In this document: positions 6,970 through 56,097 of the stretch, in pieces | Layout of the letters: each line of letters begins with the position of its first letter | Position numbering within the stretch: the stretch's first letter is position 1 | Source of the DNA: Eledone cirrhosa | Lineage: Eukaryota | Reading direction: 5' to 3' | Assembly (NCBI GenBank): GCA_964016885.1 | Contig: OZ024766.1 | Location: forward strand, 16,864,001-16,928,000 | Length of the DNA: 64,000 nt | Made by a program: the position numbers and the translations under genes | The notes under the pieces: model-generated | The model's input: the letters and a program-made list of their open reading frames with translations, nothing else | Databases searched by the model: none | What the model was told of the DNA's origin: nothing

Positions 6970-7007
<38 letters not shown>

Positions 7008-7010
<3 letters not shown>

Positions 7011-7117
7011 AAAATGTAAGACCCCGACGGCAGAGCTCAAGCCGTTCCGACGGCTGTTTCTGGTCCAGAAATAGCCGTCGAAACGGCTTGAGCTCTGTCG
7101 TCGGGGTCTTACATTTT

Positions 7118-7173
<56 letters not shown>

Positions 7174-7343
7174 AAAATGTAAGACCCCGACGGCTGTTTC
7201 TGGTCCAGAAACAGCCGTCGAAACGGCTTGAGCTCTGCCGTCGGGGTCAAACATTTTCCTATTACCCACTCTACTACCCTAAGTATTGAGTACTCTGGTG
7301 CGTTATGGTCCATCTGGTTCCTTACCACATTTCCTTCGTTATA
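7008..7343. mobile_element. Unclassified fold-back element in (TA)n; 113-bp palindrome at 7008-7120 (family also at 8444-8500 and 51537-51870)
   Basis: aggaaaatgtaagaccccgacggcagagctc...gagctctgtcgtcggggtcttacattttcct, flanked by TA runs. Confidence 0.75.
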
Positions 7344-7567
7344 TATATGTATATATATATACATATATATATTTATATATAGATTATTTCTGAAGACAGC
7401 ATATATATGTGTAGGTATGTATATTCCCTCTGATAGTTTGTAAAAATTTTACATAGATCTGTGTGATATACATACCAACACACACATATATCCTAGAAAC
7501 GATCGTAAAATGATGAATTTTTTAATATAAGGAACTGTTTCTTTGTTTTTATTCATTGTTTTTATTA

Positions 7568-7833: not shown

Positions 7834-7871
7834 GCCGACAATGTTTCGTCCTATTAAGGACTCGTCAGGGC
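7834..7871 (-). ncRNA. Minimal type I hammerhead ribozyme motif
   Basis: Minus strand reads gcc-CTGACGA-GTCCT taat AGGAC-GAAAC att GTC-ggc: canonical core, 5-bp stem II, GUC cleavage triplet and 3-bp stem I. Confidence 0.8.
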
Positions 7872-8072
7872 AATTAAATTTAATTCATTTAATTAAATTT
7901 AAATTCATTTCTATAATACGAAGAGGGTGTTTAACTCCAACACGCTCCAGTATTTTAACCCTTATATATATATATATATAGAAGTTATATTTAATTTGTT
8001 GGGATACAACAAGCTAAAAATATTTTTATAACAGATATAAAGCACTCAACAAATTATTGGAGTAAAAATACG

Positions 8073-8423
8073 ATATATTAACAAATGGAAACTATATTTA
8101 TAAAACCATATTTATTTCATTATACATATTTCAAGGACACCAAAGCAAATTATGGTGCGCTTTCATCAGATAAAATATAATATAGATCAGTTTTATAAAT
8201 AAATATTGACCTACCCTTAAAGAATGCGACCATGTCGGACTACCCGGGAGCTTCCAACCGACATGGTCGCATTCTTTAAGGGTAGGTCAATATTTGTTTA
8301 TAAAACTGATCTATATTATATTTTATCTGATGAAAGCGCACCATAATTTGCTTTGGTGTCCTTGAAATATGTATAATGAAATAAATATGGTTTTATAAAT
8401 ATAGTTTCCATTTGTTAATATAT
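8073..8423. mobile_element. 351-bp palindrome (166-bp arms, 19-nt loop), Penelope-like inverted terminal structure
   Basis: Arms 8073-8238 and 8258-8423 are reverse complements with one mismatch seen. Each arm carries a hammerhead-like motif. A single-arm relative lies at ~53747-53930. Confidence 0.8.
8319..8383 (+). ncRNA. Hammerhead-like motif with long stem II (mirrored on the minus strand in the left arm of the palindrome)
   Basis: tattttat-CTGATGA-aagcgcacca..tggtgtcctt-GAA-ATA tg TAT-A-atgaaata: 8-bp stem I. Confidence 0.6.
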
Positions 8424-8489
8424 TGTATATATGTATATATGTAGTCCAGAATTAGCCGTCGAAACGGCTTGAGCTCTGCCGTCGGGGTC

Positions 8490-8507
8490 ATACTTGTTCC
8501 TATATGT

Positions 8508-44300: not shown

Positions 44301-44403
44301 AAGAATGAAAAATAAAATAGATTTAGGGGACGGACGGGTTGGTATTGCAAGAAATGTCTTTAGATAAAAATAACAGGTCCTTTCATGTTGCCACCTCTGA
44401 TAG

Positions 44404-44470
<67 letters not shown>

Positions 44471-44475
44471 TATAG

Positions 44476-44762
44476 GGATAGAATGTAGTGTACGGGAGAG
44501 GAGACTGAGGTGGTATGGACATGTGATGCGCATGGAGGATGACCGATGGGTGAAGAAGTGCCAGGAAATGCCAGTTGAAGGAAGACGTAGTAGAGGTAGA
44601 CCACGAAAAACATGGGCGGAGGTGGTGAGAACAGACCTCAGATCATTGAAGCTCACGGTGGAGATGACGAGGGACCGTGACGAGTGGAGAGATGCTGTGC
44701 TGAATAAGACCCGTCCCACCCTTGCAAGCAGGGAAAAGCGAACGTAAAATGATGATGATGAT
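44476..44762 (+). mobile_element. 5'-truncated RTE-clade LINE 3' end with (ATG)n tail
   Basis: RLRWYGHVMRM...RGRPRKTWAEVV...DRDEWR then stop and gatgatgatg. Confidence 0.88.
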
Positions 44763-44993: not shown

Positions 44994-47211
44994 TTTATGA
45001 TAATATTTTACACGTTTTTATTGTATGTAAACTTCCACCTTTGTATTTGTCCCCTTCTTTTGTGCCCCTGTGGCTAATAAAGAAACATATCTATCAGGAT
45101 GGAGAGAGAGGTGCTGTACCCTAGCAAAATTCATGAAAGGTGGGTGAATGTGGCAAAGATGGCCCGAGTGAATGGGCCTTCTCTCTATATCAGCCTGTAG
45201 GTTGAGGAAAAAGAGGAGGAGAGGAAAGGGGTACAAACTCTTTGTACTCCTGGAGATGAGGGTTGCACATTTTTTCGGGGGGTATGTGTTACCCATATGT
45301 AATGTCTCCCCTTATTGGGGAAAATCAAATTGCATTTGTGATAGTATTTTACACGTTTTTATTGTATGTAAACTTCCCCCTTTGTATTTGTCCCCTTCTT
45401 TTGTGCCCCTGTGGCTAATAAAGAAACATATCTATCTATCTATCTATCTATCTATGTAGAACGACTATTGTCGCGGGTGGGACCAATCCAGTTGACCACC
45501 GAGTCCATTGTAATGATCAAACCTCCCACCTCCTTCAAAAACGAAGGAGAGGCGGTTTTCCTATGTGTGATAGCTATGGCGAAAGAGGTTGTATGGTGGA
45601 CGAGGTTAAAAGGGCTGAGGTCAGACACCTTTCTCTCCGGCCAACAACTGATTCTTTTTTTCAAATATCATTTTGGAAGAAGAGTCAGGATGGAGAGAGA
45701 GGTGCTGTACTCCAGCAAGTTCTATGAAAGGTGGGTGAAAGTGTTGAGAATGGCCCGAGTGAATGGGCCTTCTCTCTATATCAGCCTGTAGGTTGAGGAA
45801 AAGGAGGAAGAGAGGAAAGGGGTACAAACTCTTCGTACTCCTGGAGATGAGGGTTGCACATTTTTTCGGGGGTATGTGTTAGCCATATGTAATGTCTCCC
45901 CTTATTGGGGAAAATCGATTAACTTTTAAATTGCATTTGTGATAACATTTTACACGTTTTTATTGTATGTAAACTTCCCCCTTTGTATTTGTCCCCTTCT
46001 TTTGTGCCCCTGTAGCTAATAAAGAAACATCTATCTATCTATCTATCTATAATTGCGTGCGTCACGAAGAAACCGTTGCGCACGCATTGGTGCAATGTCC
46101 GGGCGTGGCTGATCTGTGGGGCTACGCCGAACGACTGCTGTCGCGGGTGGTACCGATTCAATTGACCGCCGAGTCCGTCATGACAATCAAACCGCCTCCC
46201 CTCTTCACAAAGGAAGCAAAGGCGGTTTTTCTGTGCGTAATAGCCATGTTGAAAGAGGTTGTTTGGTGGACACGATTGAAAGGTCTGAGGTCAGGCAACT
46301 TCCTCTCTGGCCATAGTCTGGTCTACTTCTTCCGATATCACTTCGGAAGAAGGATAAGAATGGAGAGAGAGAGAGGTGCTTGGCCACCGGCAGTTTTATG
46401 AAAGGTGGGTGATAGTGGCGAGAATGGCTCGTGTAAATGGGCCTTCTCTGTATACCATCCTGTAGGTAAAGAAGTAAAGGAGAGGGGAGCACCTTCTCCA
46501 TGTGCTCCCCGGGCAAAGGATTGCACACTTTTTCGGGGGTGTGTGCAACCCCCATCACGTCCCCTCCCTTTTGAGGTTATTTTCATGTTATACCCTTTTT
46601 ACTCGATTGTATGTAAACTCCCCCTTTGTATTTGTCCCTTCTTTTTATGCCTTTATGGTAAATAAAGAAACATATCTATCTATCTATCTATCTATCTATC
46701 TCTTTCAAAAACGAAAGAGAGGCGGTTTTCCTCTGTACGGTGGCTATGGTGAAAGAAGTTATATGGTGGACGAGGTTGAGAGGACTGAGGACAGATGCCT
46801 TTCTCTCCGGACAACAATTGATTCCCTTCTTTAAGTATCACTTTAGAAGGAGAATCAGGGTGGAGAGAGAGGCACTGCACCCCAGTAAATTTACTGAAAG
46901 GTGGGTGAATGAAGCGAAAATGGCCCGAGTGATTGGGCCTTCTCTGTTTATAAGCCTGTAGGTTGAGGAAGAGAGCACAAGGAAGAAAGGAGCACTTGCA
47001 CAACACGCTCCTTGAGTTGAGGGTTGTTCTATCTACGGGGTATTAAACAACCCATTTGTGGCGCCTCCCCCCTATTGGGGATTTCGATTGTTGAAATTGT
47101 TTGTTTTTATATTTTTTACACGACTGTATGTAAAATCCCCGGCATGTCTTTGTATTGTCCCCTTTCTTGTTGCGCCCTTGTGGCTAATAAAGAAATCTAT
47201 CTATCTATCTA
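44994..47211 (+). mobile_element. Five head-to-tail 5'-truncated L1/Tx1-like retrotransposon 3' ends
   Basis: Each ends AATAAAGAAA + (TCTA)n (~45095, 45454, 46050, 46700, 47211). C-x3-EETVAHALVQCP zinc-knuckle and VVWWTR motifs of an ORF2 C-terminus. Confidence 0.82.
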
Positions 47212-49959: not shown

Positions 49960-51378
49960 TCAATTCAACTCATCTCAGTTCTTGTCTAATTTCTTCTCAT
50001 TTCATTTCACATCTCATTCATCTTTCATCTAATTTCATTGCATCTCATTTTCATTTCATTTCTTATCTAATATCATCTCATTACAATGCATTCTTCATCA
50101 AATTCTTCACATCTCACCTCACATTTCATCTCACATCTCACCTCACATCTCACCTCTATGCCTGTCGTTTCAGCTAATGAATGTATTTCCCATCATAAAT
50201 GTATTTATAATCCATGAGAATCTAATGTTCCTTTCATCACATCACATCACATCTCACATCTCATCCCTCATCACATCACACCTCTCTCTCTCTCACATCA
50301 CATCGCCTCACAACACACCACTCCCTCTAATCTCCCATCACATCTCATCTCATCACATCACATCTCATCACATCACATCTCATCCTTCATCACATCACAC
50401 CTCTCTCTCTCATCTCCCATCACATCACACATCTCCCATCACATCTCATCTCATCACATCACATCTCACATCATACATCACATCTCATCCCTCATCACAT
50501 CACACCTCTCTCTCTCATCTCCCATCACATCACACCTCTCTCTCTCATCACATCTCATCACATCACATCACATCTCACATCCGCCTTCATCACACATTTA
50601 GACCTCACATCTCTCTCAGCTGCTCACCTTACATCTCTCTTTTCTCCCCTCACATCACATCACATCACATCTCACCATTACATCTCTATCTCACATCTCT
50701 CTCTCACCATCACATCTCTCTCTCTCACATCTCACATCACATCTCACCATCACATCTCTCTCTCTCACATCTCTCTCTCACATCTCACCATCACATCTCC
50801 CTCTCACCATCACATCTCTCTCTCTCACATCTCACCTCACATCTCACCTCTCTCACCATCACATCTCTCTCACATCTCACCTCACATCTCCCTCTCACCA
50901 TCACATCTCTCTCTCACATCTCACCATCACATCTCCCTCTCACCATCACATCTCTCTCTCTCACATCTCACCTCACATCTCCCTCTCACATCTCACCATC
51001 ACATCTCTCTCTCACATCTCACCATCACATCTCCCTCTCACCATCACATCTCTCTCTCTCACATCTCTCTCACCCTCACATCTCACATCACATCTCACCT
51101 CACATCTCACCTCACATCTCTCTCTCACATCTCACCATCACATCTCACCATCACATCTCCCTCTCACCACACATCTCACCTCTCTCACCATCACATCTCT
51201 CTCTCTCACATCTCACCATCACATCTCACCATCACATCTCACCTCACATCTCACCATCACATCTCCCTCTCACCACACATCTCTCACCACACATCTCACC
51301 TCTCTCCACACATCTCACCTCTCTCACCATCACATCTCACCTCACATCTCACCTCACATCTCACCTCACATCTCACCG
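49960..51378. repeat. (CTCACAT)-like low-complexity tract
   Basis: Almost G-free CA/CT tract. Confidence 0.9.
50174..50227 (+). pseudogene. Degenerate partial duplicate of ST7 exon 9 with intact acceptor
   Basis: ctatgcctgtcgtttcAG|ctaatgaatgtatttcccatcataaat... versus ctatgtctgtcgtttcAG|ctaatgaaagagtttcccatgataaat... The peptides are LMNVFPIINVFIIHENLM versus [18 protein letters not shown]. Confidence 0.85.
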
Positions 51379-51396
51379 CTATGTCTGTCGTTTCAG

Positions 51397-51511
51397 CTAA
51401 TGAAAGAGTTTCCCATGATAAATCTATTTACAATCCACGAAAACCTGATCGAGGCCCTACTGGAGCTACAGGCATACTCGGAGGTGCAAGCAGTGTTAGC
51501 GAAATATGATG
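51397..51511 (+). CDS. ST7: ST7 exon 9: [38 protein letters not shown]
   Basis: tttcAG / GTTAGT, 115 nt, phase 0 to 1. Conserved [15 protein letters not shown]. Confidence 0.96.
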
Positions 51512-51877
51512 GTTAGTACACACACATATATATATAGGAAAAAGTAAGACCCCGACGGCAGAGCTCAAGCCATTTCGACGGCTATTTCAGTCCAGAAATA
51601 GCCGTCGAAACAGCTTGAGCTCTGCCGTCGGAGTCTTACTTTTTCCTATTACCCACTCTACTACTCTAAGTATTGAGTACTCTGGTGCGTTATGGTCCAT
51701 CTGGTTCCTTACCACATTTCCTTTGTTATATACGTCCAGAAATAGCCGGCGAAACGGCTTGAGCTCTGCCGTCGGAGTCTTACTTTTTCCTATTACCCAC
51801 TCTACTACCCTAAGTATTGAGTACTCTGGTGCGTTATGGTCCATCTGGTTCCTTACCACATTTCCTTTGTTATATAT

Positions 51878-53620
51878 ATATGAAGAAGAAGTTTATGAAA
51901 CGGAAATGCGGGTATAAAGAAATTATTAGGTAACAATTGTTTCTATAGTGTGTGGATTACCTATACCTCGCTATTTGTATAATATAAAAATATTATCATA
52001 AATCGTAGGTACACTGTAAGAGAACACACCATGTCGTCAGACCTTTATGGTAGAATAAAGGTCTGACGACATGGTGAGTTCTCTTACAGTGTAAATCGTA
52101 GGTACACTGTAAGAGAACACACCATGTCGTCAGACCTTTATTCTACCATAAAGGTCTGACGACATGGTGAGTTCTCTTACAGTGTAAATCGTAGGTACAC
52201 TGTAAGAGAACACACCATGTCGTCAGACCTTTATTCTACCATAAAGGTCTGACGACATGGTGAGTTCTCTTACAGTGTAAATCGTAGGTACACTGTAAGA
52301 GAACACACCATGTCGTCAGACCTTTATTCTACCATAAAGGTCTGACGACATGGTGAGTTCTCTTACAGTGTAAATCGTAGGTACACTGTAAGAGAACACA
52401 CCATGTCGTCAGACCTTTATTCTACCATAAAGGTCTGACGACATGGTGAGTTCTCTTACAGTGTAAATCGTAGGTACGCTGTAAGAGAACACACCATGTC
52501 GTCAGACCTTTATTCTACCATAAAGGTCTGACGACATGGTGAGTTCTCTTACAGTGTAAATCGTAGGTACGCTGTAAGAGAACACACCATGTCGTCAGAC
52601 CTTTATTCTACCATAAAGGTCTGACGACATGGTGAGTTCTCTTACAGTGTAAATCGTAGGTACACTGTAAGAGAACACACCATGTCGTCAGACCTTTATT
52701 CTACCATAAAGGTCTGACGACATGGTGAGTTCTCTTACAGTGTAAATCGTAGGTACACTGTAAGAGAACACACCATGTCGTCAGACCTTTATTCTACCAT
52801 AAAGGTCTGACGACATGGTGAGTTCTCTTACAGTGTAAATCGTAGGTACACTGTAAGAAAACACACCATGTCGTCAGACCTTTATTCTACCACAAAGGTC
52901 TGACGACATGGTGAGTTCTCTTACAGTGTAAATCGTAGGTACACTGTAAGAGAACACACCATGTCGTCAGACCTTTATTCTACCATAAAGGTCTGACGAC
53001 ATGGTGAGTTCTCTTACAGTGTAAATCGTAGGTACACTGTAAGAGAACACACCATGTCGTCAGACCTTTATTCTACCATAAAGGTCTGACGACATGGTGA
53101 GTTCTCTTACAGTGTAAATCGTAGGTACACTGTAAGAAAACACACCATGTCGTCAGACCTTTATTCTACCACAAAGGTCTGACGACATGGTGAGTTCTCT
53201 TACAGTGTAAATCGTAGGTACACTGTAAGAGAACACACCATGTCGTCAGACCTTTATTCTACCATAAAGGTCTGACGACATGGTGAGTTCTCTTACAGTG
53301 TAAATCGTAGGTACACTGTAAGAGAACTCACCATGTCGTCAGACCTTTATTCTACCATAAAGGTCTGACGACATGGTGTGTTCTCTTACAGTGTAAATCG
53401 TAGGTACACTGTAAGAGAACTCACCATGTCGTCAGACCTTTATTCTACCATAAAGGTCTGACGACATGGTGTGTTCTCTTACAGTGTACCTACGATTTAT
53501 GATAATATTTTTATATTATACAAATAGCGAGGTATAGGTAATCCACACACTATAGAAACAATTGTTACCTAATAATTTCTTTATACCCGCATTTCCGTTT
53601 CATAAACTTCTTCTTCATAT
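51878..53620. repeat. Array of 16 x 93-bp hairpin units bracketed by 216-bp inverted repeats
   Basis: Units 52001-53488; each is a 9-nt spacer + 39-nt arm + 6-nt loop + 39-nt arm. 51878-52093 is the reverse complement of 53405-53620. Confidence 0.95.
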
Positions 53621-53822
53621 TTTCTCCGGATTTTAAAGCTTATTTTATTATACGTTGAGCAAACTCCGATGTCGGTTGACTCCATCCAATGAGACTACCT
53701 AGTAACATTGGAGTACAGATATAAATATATATATATATATATATATACTATCCAGGAAGCTCCAACCGTTAAGGTTGTCTTTTTTTCTGGGTATGTCAAT
53801 ATTTATTTATAAAACAAATCTG

Positions 53823-53888
53823 TATTTTATCTGATGAAAGCGCACCATCATTTGCCTTGGTTGCCCTTGAAATATGTATAATAAAGTA
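53823..53888 (+). ncRNA. Hammerhead-like motif, diverged paralogue of 8319-8383, sense in ST7 intron
   Basis: tattttat-CTGATGA-aagcgcacca..tggttgccctt-GAAATATGTATA-ataaagta. Stem I pairing is retained despite substitutions. Confidence 0.6.
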
Positions 53889-53939
53889 AGTACGGTTTTA
53901 TAAATATAGTTTCCATTTATTAATATATTGTATATATAT

Positions 53940-55643
53940 CATCATCATCATTTCATTTTACGTCCGCTTTTTCCCTGCTTGCAAGGGTGGGACGGGAACT
54001 GATTCTGGCTTGATTTCTACAGCTGGATGTCCTTCCTAACACCAACCTCATTTACAGTGAGTGCTGGGTGCTTTTTTTGCTGTGGCACCTCCACGACCAC
54101 TTTACAGTGTGGGCTGGGTGCTTTTTCGTGGCGCCTACACATCCACTTTACAGTGTGGGCTGGGTGCTTTTTTGCCGTGGCACCTCCATGACCACTTTAC
54201 AGTGGAATGATAGGGACCCCAGTCCCTATCATCTCATTTCTACAGCTGAGTAAACTGGAGCAATGTGAAATAAAGTGTCTTGCTCAAGGAAACAACACAT
54301 CACCCGGTCTGAGAATTGAACTCACAACCTTTCACATTGCTCCAGTTTACTCAGCTGTAGAAATGAGATGATAGGGACTGGGGTCCCTATCATTCCACTG
54401 CAAAGTGGACGTGTAGGCGCCACGAAAAAAAAGCACCCAGCACTCACTGTAAAGTGGTCGTGGAGGTGCCACAGCAAAAAAGGACCCAGCACTCACTGTA
54501 AAGTGGTCGTGGAGGTGCCACGGTAAAAAGCACCCAACACTCACTGTAAAGTGGTCGTGCAGGTGCCACGGTAAAAAAGCACCCAGCCCACACTGTAAAG
54601 TAGTCGTGGAGGTGCCACGGCAAAAAAAGCACCCAGCCCACACTGTAAAGTAGTCGTGGAGGTGCCACGGCAAAAAAGACCCAGCACTCACTGTAAAGTG
54701 GTCGTGGAGGTGCCACGGCAAGAAAGCACCCAGCACTCACTGTAAAGTGGTCGTGGAGGTGCCACGGCAAGAAAGCACCCAGCACTCACTGTAAAGTGGT
54801 CGTGGAGGTGCCACGGCAAAAAAGCACCCAGCACTCACTGTAAAGTGGTCGTGGAGGTGCCACGGCAAAAAAGCACCCAGCACTCACTGTAAAGTGGTCG
54901 TGGAGGTGCCACGGCAAAAAAGCACCCAGCACTCACTGTAAAGTGGTCGTGGAGGTGCCACGGCAAAAAAGCACCCAGACCACACTGTAAAGTGGTCGTG
55001 GAGGTGCCACGGCAAAAAAGCACCCAGCACTCACTGTAAAGTGGTCGTGGAGGTGCCACGGCAAAAAAGCACCCAGCACTCACTGTAAAGTGGTCGTGGA
55101 GGTGCCACGGCAAAAAAGCACCCAGCACTCACTGTAAAGTGGTCGTGGAGGTGCCACGGCAAAAAAGCACCCAGCACTCACTGTAAAGTGGTCGTGGAGG
55201 TGCCACGGCAAAAAAGCACCCAGCACTCACTGTAAAGTGGTCGTGGAGGTGCCACGGCAAAAAAGCACCCAGCACTCACTGTAAAGTGGTCGTGGAGGTG
55301 CCACGGCAAAAAAGCACCCAGCACTCACTGTAAAGTGGTCGTGGAGGTGCCACGGCAAAAAAGCACCCAGCACTCACTGTAAAGTGGTCGTGGAGGTGCC
55401 ACGGCAAAAAAGCACCCAGCACTCACTGTAAAGTGGTCGTGGAGGTGCCACGGCAAAAAAGCACCCAGCACTCACTGTAAAGTGGTCGTGGAGGTGCCAC
55501 GGCAAAAAAGCACCCAGCACTCACTGTAAATGAGGTTGGTGTTAGGAAGGGCATCCAGCTGTAGAAATCAAGCCAGAATCTGTTCCTGTCCCACCCTTGC
55601 AAGCAGGGAAAAGCGGACGTAAAATGAAATGAATGAAATGAAA
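53940..55643. mobile_element. Head-to-head pair of SINE copies (minus 53940-54333; plus 54330-55643 with ~23 x 49-bp units)
   Basis: Both RTE-type tails point outward; the junction shares TTTC. Confidence 0.85.
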
Positions 55644-55698
55644 ATATGTGAAGGCGCATGGCTTAGTGGTTACAGCATTGGGCTTGCAATCGGAAGAG

Positions 55699-55917
55699 GG
55701 CATCTGTTGTACTCTTCCCAGGCACAAAACCAAACTGCATCTCATCTTTCTCTAATTAGTTGCGCTAATATCCTTTCTGCCACTTTCATAACTTGATCCA
55801 TCAGTTTTATACCCCTATAATTGCTCCTCTCCAAAGCATCCCCTTTACCTTTGTAGCAATTTATGAGAATACTGCTGCACCAGTCTTTGGGTATGACACC
55901 ACCATATATAGCCTGAT
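55699..55917 (-). mobile_element. RTE-clade reverse transcriptase fragment
   Basis: Minus strand translates IPKDWCSSILINCYKGKGDALERSNYRGIKLMDQVMKVAERILAQLIRE.../EMQFGFVPGKSTTD. It abuts an isolated SINE tRNA head at 55652-55698. Confidence 0.85.
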
Positions 55918-56024
55918 CGATGATGCATGCAACCAGTTTAGGGCCTACGTCCCCTGATGATGATATAAAATATTTTGTGAAAAAATCTGTGTGAAGATTC
56001 TAATAATTTACTTTCTCCCTCCAG

Positions 56025-56097
56025 ATATAAATTTACCCAAATCAGCCACAATATGTTACACTGCTGCACTGTTGAAAGCTAGGACTGTAGCAGATAA
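56025..56097 (+). CDS. ST7: ST7 exon 10: [25 protein letters not shown]
   Basis: ctccAG / GTAAGT, 73 nt, phase 1 to 2. Conserved [17 protein letters not shown]. Confidence 0.96.

Follow-up and report, generated by a model that had tools for sequence, protein, structure and literature searches.

Sixteen tandem hairpins in an ST7 intron of Eledone cirrhosa probably grew between two mirror-image ends of a putative hammerhead-bearing Penelope-like element

An intron of the ST7 gene of Eledone cirrhosa carries 16 tandem hairpins framed by a long and perfect inverted repeat. This insertion probably consists of two mirror-image 3′ ends of a hammerhead-bearing, non-autonomous Penelope-like element (PLE) set in a (TA)n tract, the central 93 bp of which were multiplied later by slippage or unequal exchange. 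The window, that is, the whole 64,000-nucleotide stretch of DNA analysed here, holds the animal-type ST7 gene on its + strand, and the 16-hairpin element lies in a 4.5-kb intron (51512-56024) between the upstream exon at 51397-51511 (+ strand; PF04184, E 9.4e-15) and the next, downstream exon at 56025-56097 (+ strand). These flanking exons bear out the intronic position given in the original prediction, which had been made from the letters of the window and a list of its open reading frames.

In the assembled sequence the 16 units follow one another with a period of 93, starting at 52001, 52094 and so on to 53396, with the last ending at 53488, and TRF returned 16.0 copies with 98% match for the array. 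Each 93-bp unit runs from a 9-nt spacer through the first strand of a 39-bp stem and a 6-nt loop to the second strand of the 39-bp stem. As DNA, a single unit folds at -42.9 kcal/mol (z -16.3), a value reached by 0 of 200 shuffles; stems with two or three mismatches number four of the 16, and the hairpin exists in two registers, one with a 6-nt and one with a 9-nt loop. Two markers sort the units into three types: unit 1 (type A, 52001-52093, + strand) has an A/A mismatch at stem position 17 and the loop GGTAGA, units 2-14 (type B, 52094-53302, + strand) have the A/A mismatch and the loop TCTACC, and units 15-16 (type C, 53303-53488, + strand) have a T/T mismatch and the loop TCTACC. The type C hairpin is the reverse complement of the unit 1 hairpin. 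Among the 13 type B units nine are identical in sequence, and a few private changes recur, one being common to units 6 and 7 and two to units 10 and 13. Because the spacer occurs in reverse complement only once, at 53486, the units join head-to-tail at each of the 15 internal junctions.

The array is framed by 51878-52093 and 53405-53620, which are exact reverse complements at 216 of 216 positions; the first mismatch falls at offset 217, and the inverted repeat has no outward extension. The right arm (53405-53620, + strand) is a direct copy that reaches the short end of a dispersed family, and the element itself extends for about 100 bp beyond 53620, as far as a (TA)n run at 53719-53747. This one-sided tail (53621-53720, + strand) is family sequence present on the right only and leads to the long family end. 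The left arm (51878-52093, - strand) is an inverted, tail-less copy of the element 3′ end that includes hairpin unit 1, and beside it lies a second (TA)n run (51871-51881), which would be the target and in which no unique target-site duplication is readable. The original prediction had described 16 units of 93 bp with a 39-bp stem, 6-nt loop and 9-nt spacer, a loop that reads GGTAGA in unit 1 and TCTACC in all others, a mismatch swapped in units 15-16, a last hairpin that is the exact reverse complement of the first, and inverted repeats of 216 bp, and each of these proved exact on recount.

The arm belongs to a high-copy dispersed family that is present in runs of three organisms. Seven of ten runs contained part of the stretch, and records from four of them were aligned to 53390-53770, which spans the last unit, the right arm and the flank only. 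The aligned records number 138 in X1 and 203 in X8 (both organism A), 1450 in X5 (organism B) and 2 in X6 (organism C). They are mostly 80-99% alike, and their depths sum to tens to hundreds of thousands, a measure that is not a copy number. Over this repeat the contigs in the runs were short. In all four runs there are loose ends before 53442-53455, those listed showing one and the same other upstream sequence, and the majority of family copies are without the hairpin. The loose ends imply that the hairpin is not the normal end of the family and that TCTACC is the native loop orientation; the junction with native family sequence lies at 53442, where a 2-bp AT match closes the 6-nt loop (53442-53451, + strand) and served to close the fold-back.

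The family has two alternative ends, at 53620 and at about 53720. Copies ending in (TA)n behind 53620 are represented by at least three contigs in X1 and seven reads in X8, and family depth also runs on to 53714 in X1, X8 and X5. The left arm stops at the same point as the short family end (53620), and given the two ends the insert can be described as a short inverted copy joined to a direct copy that has a tail about 100 bp long, the whole lying between (TA)n runs. Depth over the inverted stem is found in X1 alone (70-453 at 53403-53441), which may be the assembly's own sample, and one 85-nt X1 contig (53422-53506) crosses the loop, with 22 letters on its short side, below the 31-letter bridging rule. 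Among the aligned runs no palindromic donor was found, depth before 53442 being zero in X8 and X6 and 48.6 as against 54,969 in X5. The joints listed for the last unit, right arm and flank (two, both from X5) include no tandem junction, and a metagenome scan gave 59 exact 17-mer matches, the best extending to 21 nt, all of which were judged to be chance.

The native upstream sequence is loosely complementary to 53496-53520, and at 53442 it forms the word TCATTC, with its A at the fold-back point. We take this word to resemble the initiator consensus, which would suggest a transcript 5′ end. This is only a weak lead: the same word precedes the hammerhead of another family, which runs well upstream of it, and the TATA-like word lies only 19 nt upstream.

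A non-autonomous PLE is the likely source of the insert, because an inverted short copy, a tailed direct copy, a (TA)n setting, a junction palindrome and a hammerhead motif occur together. PLE insertions are described in the accessible part of PMC8557442 as having an inverted 5′-truncated copy, a tail at one end and a (TA)n target without readable target-site duplication. In addition, palindromes of 18 or 38 bp at the 5′ ends of pLTRs about 200 bp long have been read as self-priming (PMC3846280, in the portion available), and purified PLE protein nicks and extends both strands, its reverse transcriptase (RT) starting at two tail-bounding sites (PMC11167929, likewise in part). Judged against EN+ PLEs, the insert shows an inverted 5′-truncated copy beside a direct copy with a palindrome at the junction, a tail at one end with two alternative 3′ ends, AT-rich (TA)n on both sides and behind the family ends, and a predicted type I hammerhead, with an atypical helix II, on the pLTR sense strand near the 3′ end. 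The non-autonomous Penelope-like origin proposed in the original prediction thus gains support from the dispersed arm family and the PLE-type hammerhead motif.

These features, together with the high copy, are those of EN+ PLEs of the Penelope/Poseidon, Neptune, Nematis and Hydra clades and of their solo or truncated pLTRs (available portions of PMC8557442, PMC3846280 and PMC4209133). The insert differs from them in that an ORF is unlinked, the tail is about 100 bp long whereas 30-40 bp is quoted in the text available on PLEs, helix II spans about 90 nt, and the junction palindrome is amplified 16 times. Six read-through frames of the arm gave no Pfam match, and 122 non-repeat frames of the window matched ST7 only (in eight), with neither RT nor GIY-YIG found; a search for protein relatives of the tail frame returned two candidates, none with E <= 10. 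Because the element end is truncated, an RT/GIY-YIG ORF is expected to be absent.

Within the PLEs, Hydra-clade hammerheads (Hydra-1_Obim, Penelope-n_HM and Penelope-2_NV), as far as the accessible text and Files S1/S2 of PMC8557442 describe them, share with the motif here a preference for (TA)n, an unpaired helix II foot, a 4-bp palindromic helix III, often a U at the cut, and a position within about 200 nt of the 3′ end; the sequence differs, however, and loop 2 has 3-10 nt there as against 70 nt here. By eye, the arm gave no match to the hammerhead of Hydra-1_Obim and no likeness to the 3′ ends of Naiad_Obim, Naiad_Ovul and Naiad_Omin, and a 15-nt stem word is absent from the available portion of the PMC8557442 supplement. 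The Naiad clade was rejected, as a whole hammerhead motif is present here whereas Naiads, whose ORF has an N-terminal EN, have no canonical hammerhead. Non-LTR retrozymes are likewise non-autonomous and tandem, bear a type I hammerhead and have been proposed to derive from PLEs (PMC7229834; bioRxiv 10.64898/2026.07.22.740005; both in part). In the same partial sources, however, their monomers measure 150-450 bp and carry one whole hammerhead each, whereas the unit here has 93 bp and half a core; with whole motifs only in the two arms, this assignment was also rejected.

Two other families of similar build occur in the window. One has inverted 171-bp arms (two mismatches) around a 19-nt centre at 8068-8432, with a hammerhead-like core in each arm, and a single direct copy at 53747-53940 that begins directly after the (TA)n run following the target. 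The other, at 51534-51870, 7002-7345 and 8443-8503, has a hairpin with a 55-57-bp stem, an 84-bp tail, (TA)n flanks and a partial tandem copy; by eye it retains a degenerate hammerhead in which helix III and GUC are kept and the core is changed. It adjoins the target directly upstream. Immediately downstream of the ST7 exon, three such inserts follow one another in TA runs.

The predicted type I hammerhead of the right arm (53454-53570, + strand) was delineated by a descriptor, by folding and by variant sites, and its mirror image lies in the left arm at 51928-52044 (- strand, core at 52040). The whole motif therefore occurs twice, once per arm and on opposite strands, whereas a 93-bp unit contains no more than the first half of its core. 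The predicted parts are helix I (53454-53457 with 53567-53570), the core CUGACGA (53458-53464), helix II (53466-53474 with 53545-53553), GAAA (53555-53558), a palindromic helix III (53558-53565) and GUU, with the predicted cut after 53566. Helix II would comprise 9 bp and a folded 70-nt extension, about 90 nt in all, and the pair G10.1-C11.1 is absent from the arm motif. An intron within helix II and an ORF start at 53466 were considered by eye and dropped, since stops remain.

The descriptor, which was written after the motif had been seen, reports seven motifs over the window, two of them in the arms (53458 + and 52040 -). Among 20,000 dinucleotide shuffles of the arm, 18 passed the loose descriptor and none passed with a helix I of at least 4 and a helix II of at least 3. 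The motif region folds at z -3.2; pairing probability is 0.85-1.0 for helix II and only 0.21-0.28 for helix I, and the hammerhead-constrained fold, at -26.2 kcal/mol, is 3.8 kcal/mol above the minimum free energy (MFE) of -30.0. Among 40 of the 60 variant rows, none of the 36 variable sites falls in the 29-nt core (P ~0.01). Of the 19 letter changes in these rows that fall within the motif, 18 leave the fold intact, where the null has a mean of 8.0 that break it. The remaining change, at 53502, lies opposite 53520, and between organisms A and B the majority letters at these two positions are interchanged. Rfam gave no hammerhead match for the arm or for any of the similar motifs elsewhere in the window. 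Its matches in 50000-56000 were sub-threshold hairpins of miRNA type, with nothing relevant in the arm, and over the window it gave one weak tRNA.

Several traits of the motif have parallels among PLE hammerheads, which in the accessible parts of PMC8557442 (File S2) and PMC4209133 have a short helix I, a palindromic helix III, often a U at the cut site and an unpaired base pair at the helix II foot, in one case with the same C and A. They cleave slowly in vitro (PMC4209133, in part). The longest helix II domain among 32 motif rows of the available File S2 of PMC8557442 is about 53 nt, and the standard core search allows 7-17 nt for helix II (PMC8557442, in part). In the literature searched, which covered neither Repbase, Dfam nor most subscription papers, no PLE hammerhead with a 90-nt helix II was found. 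Further type I hammerhead-like motifs lie in the window at 431 (+), 44296 (-), 7868 (-) and 7390 (+); those at 431 and 44296 form one family, that at 7868 looks canonical, and that at 7390, with a 99-nt spacer, may be chance. An alignment of the window's hammerhead regions gave no family likeness, and the cores did not align.

A history that accounts for the markers would begin with an earlier round in which a cDNA snapped back at 53442 on the 2-bp AT match and copied itself, giving a donor in which the 5′ end was a palindrome and the stem had one mismatch. That the non-native mismatch letter is identical at the two ends suggests a single such donor, since fold-backs arising independently would not yield this. 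PLE RT/endonuclease supplied in trans would then have made a nick in each strand of the (TA)n target, and two cDNAs would have been primed, one at the short start and one at the long start. Joined at the self-complementary TA, they would give an arm-A-C-arm-tail arrangement with 216-bp inverted arms and the tail on one side. In this arrangement A and C would also be 93-bp direct repeats, permitting in-register slippage or unequal exchange, by which type B could have been produced and then expanded to 13 copies, with one template-switch inversion of the loop as an option. Loop inversion by template switching at hairpins has been described (PMC8794818, in part). In a search over marker states, A-C was converted to A-B-C-C in four in-register unequal exchanges, or in three steps with one loop flip; starting from a single hairpin took five to six. 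With ends that are inverted copies of each other, a single loop inversion, or even none, is enough to account for the flip/flop pattern, and because the arms are identical the copy should be young.

The array probably grew by ordinary tandem duplication after insertion. The private changes common to units 6 and 7 and to units 10 and 13 argue for stepwise tandem or block duplication, and with three to four exchange steps sufficing, the statement of the original prediction that the array is "not simple slippage" is not supported. Its view of the locus as a fossil of self-priming gains support in part, namely for one fold-back event, but not for repeated fold-back copying across the 16 units. With head-to-tail units that have variants in common, the array is a minisatellite (VNTR). 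It resembles transposon-derived minisatellites in this, in its intronic position and in variants common to adjacent or periodic units, and differs in its near-perfect palindromic unit and its frame of a perfect long inverted repeat. As such it is not special, being one of 19 minisatellites in the window, which make up 48% of it; tandem repeats together make up 76%. No PLE-derived hairpin minisatellite was found in the literature searched (again excluding Repbase, Dfam and most subscription papers).

The same PLE-type family can also be combined with another origin of the repeats, in which the RT made most of the array in one event, running round a 93-nt dumbbell (a 39-bp stem with the 6-nt loop at one end and the 9-nt spacer at the other), and later slippage only edited it. 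The existence of both hairpin registers, the identity of nine of the 13 B units, the uniform direction of 15 of 15 spacers, as a rolling dumbbell would give, and the self-priming proposed for PLEs (PMC3846280, in part) are all in its favour. Copying one dumbbell, however, would give one unit type and not A, B and C, the changes common to units 6/7 and 10/13 require later duplications anyway, ordinary exchange suffices in three to four steps, and most other repeats in the window are tandemly expanded too; we therefore regard this origin as unlikely. An extended version has a Penelope-like RT, related to telomerase, assemble most of the array in the course of integration and takes the family hammerhead to be active, of a new long-helix-II type that escapes standard descriptors, and locked in the host pre-mRNA by the inverted arm; we hold it to be just as doubtful. 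The perfect 216-bp inverted ends, the TA flanks and the family copies that end at 53620 could instead suggest a DNA transposon of the foldback or MITE type, bounded by 216-bp terminal inverted repeats, with internal tandem repeats and inserted at TA. But on one side alone the family continues beyond 53620, for about 100 bp, and its native sequence upstream of 53442 is another one, for which reason the 216 bp are not a terminal inverted repeat of the family, and no family-wide terminal inverted repeats are found at both ends. The conserved RNA fold with its predicted hammerhead core points, moreover, to an RNA intermediate, and such a transposon is very improbable.

Fold-back chimeras arise at palindromes, and the array or its length might accordingly be an artefact of assembly or of chimeric reads at a strong hairpin. 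The lack of a tandem junction among the joints listed for the last unit, right arm and flank would fit, as would the lack of this copy's letter in every X1 contig at 53576, 53640, 53663, 53670 and 53692, although contigs drop rare variants. The structured substitutions common to units 6/7, 10/13 and 15/16 are unlike polishing or chimera error, and X1 has depth 70-453 at 53403-53441 with one contig across the loop, which makes an artefact a shade less probable still than the transposon. The original prediction had favoured repeated hairpin copying of the parvovirus or poxvirus type, and the end hairpins are indeed exact flip/flop isomers, a parvovirus feature (PMC1131931, in part). As in the flip/flop ITRs of AAV, an imperfect hairpin occurs as two sequence isomers, each the reverse complement of the other. 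Here, however, there is no T-shape and no rep/cap body, the hairpins are internal, and the concatemer is head-to-tail, whereas AAV dimers are head-to-head or tail-to-tail (PMC1131931, in part). In a toy model, fold-back copying of the whole molecule alternates the orientation of spacer and arm; in the array the spacers fail to alternate, 15 of 15 internal ones pointing one way, which speaks against the repeated copying that had been claimed. The hairpins also face inward without a unique coding body, and no Rep/NS1 or capsid gene lies between them; the 122 window frames hold no viral ORF, IMG/VR gave no match to a 22-nt stem word, and the arm is a very high-copy family with a predicted hammerhead. 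A fossil of rolling-hairpin replication, whether parvovirus-like or from another hairpin-ended replicon, is scarcely credible.

Two mirror-image PLE ends with a later tandem expansion remain the preferred reading, and the insert would have consequences for the host transcript. At all 8 positions checked in the whole-insert MFE structure, the core included, each base of the left arm is paired with its counterpart in the right arm. The ST7 pre-mRNA is predicted to contain a 216-bp perfect duplex and 16 hairpins. As the left arm pairs with the right, the predicted sense-strand hammerhead would be locked in the pre-mRNA, and the arm duplex is a possible substrate for editing or small RNAs. Read on the ST7 sense strand, every unit in 52001-53488 contains a pyrimidine run that ends in CAG and resembles an acceptor; in types A and B it is preceded, 17 nt upstream, by a donor-like GTGAGT. 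A 76-nt pseudo-exon in the hairpin units is conceivable, though the stems would bury it.

Most of the ST7 introns in the window are filled by minisatellites, and a 65-bp unit is repeated 155 times at 14335-24429 (10 kb of the window). The ST7 exon at 51397 is represented a second time at 50107-50226, where its 5′ half and the end of the intron before it recur as a degenerate, incomplete copy (88% across 120 bp) that keeps the acceptor intact. Translations at about 44400-44640, 45900-46100 and 55600-55950, which by eye we take to be decayed LINE fragments of RTE and L1/Tx1 type, gave no Pfam score.

How PLEs form tandem and inverted insertions is a question still under debate (PMC8557442 and PMC11167929, in the parts available). 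This copy, with its three orientation markers, gives what looks like a snapshot of priming at both ends from the two sites where RT starts. The predicted 90-nt helix II is, in addition, conserved in structure in three organisms, and a search with a 7-17 nt spacer would miss hammerheads of this kind. This suggests that some PLEs recorded as having a "half core" or as ribozyme-free may have whole hammerheads.
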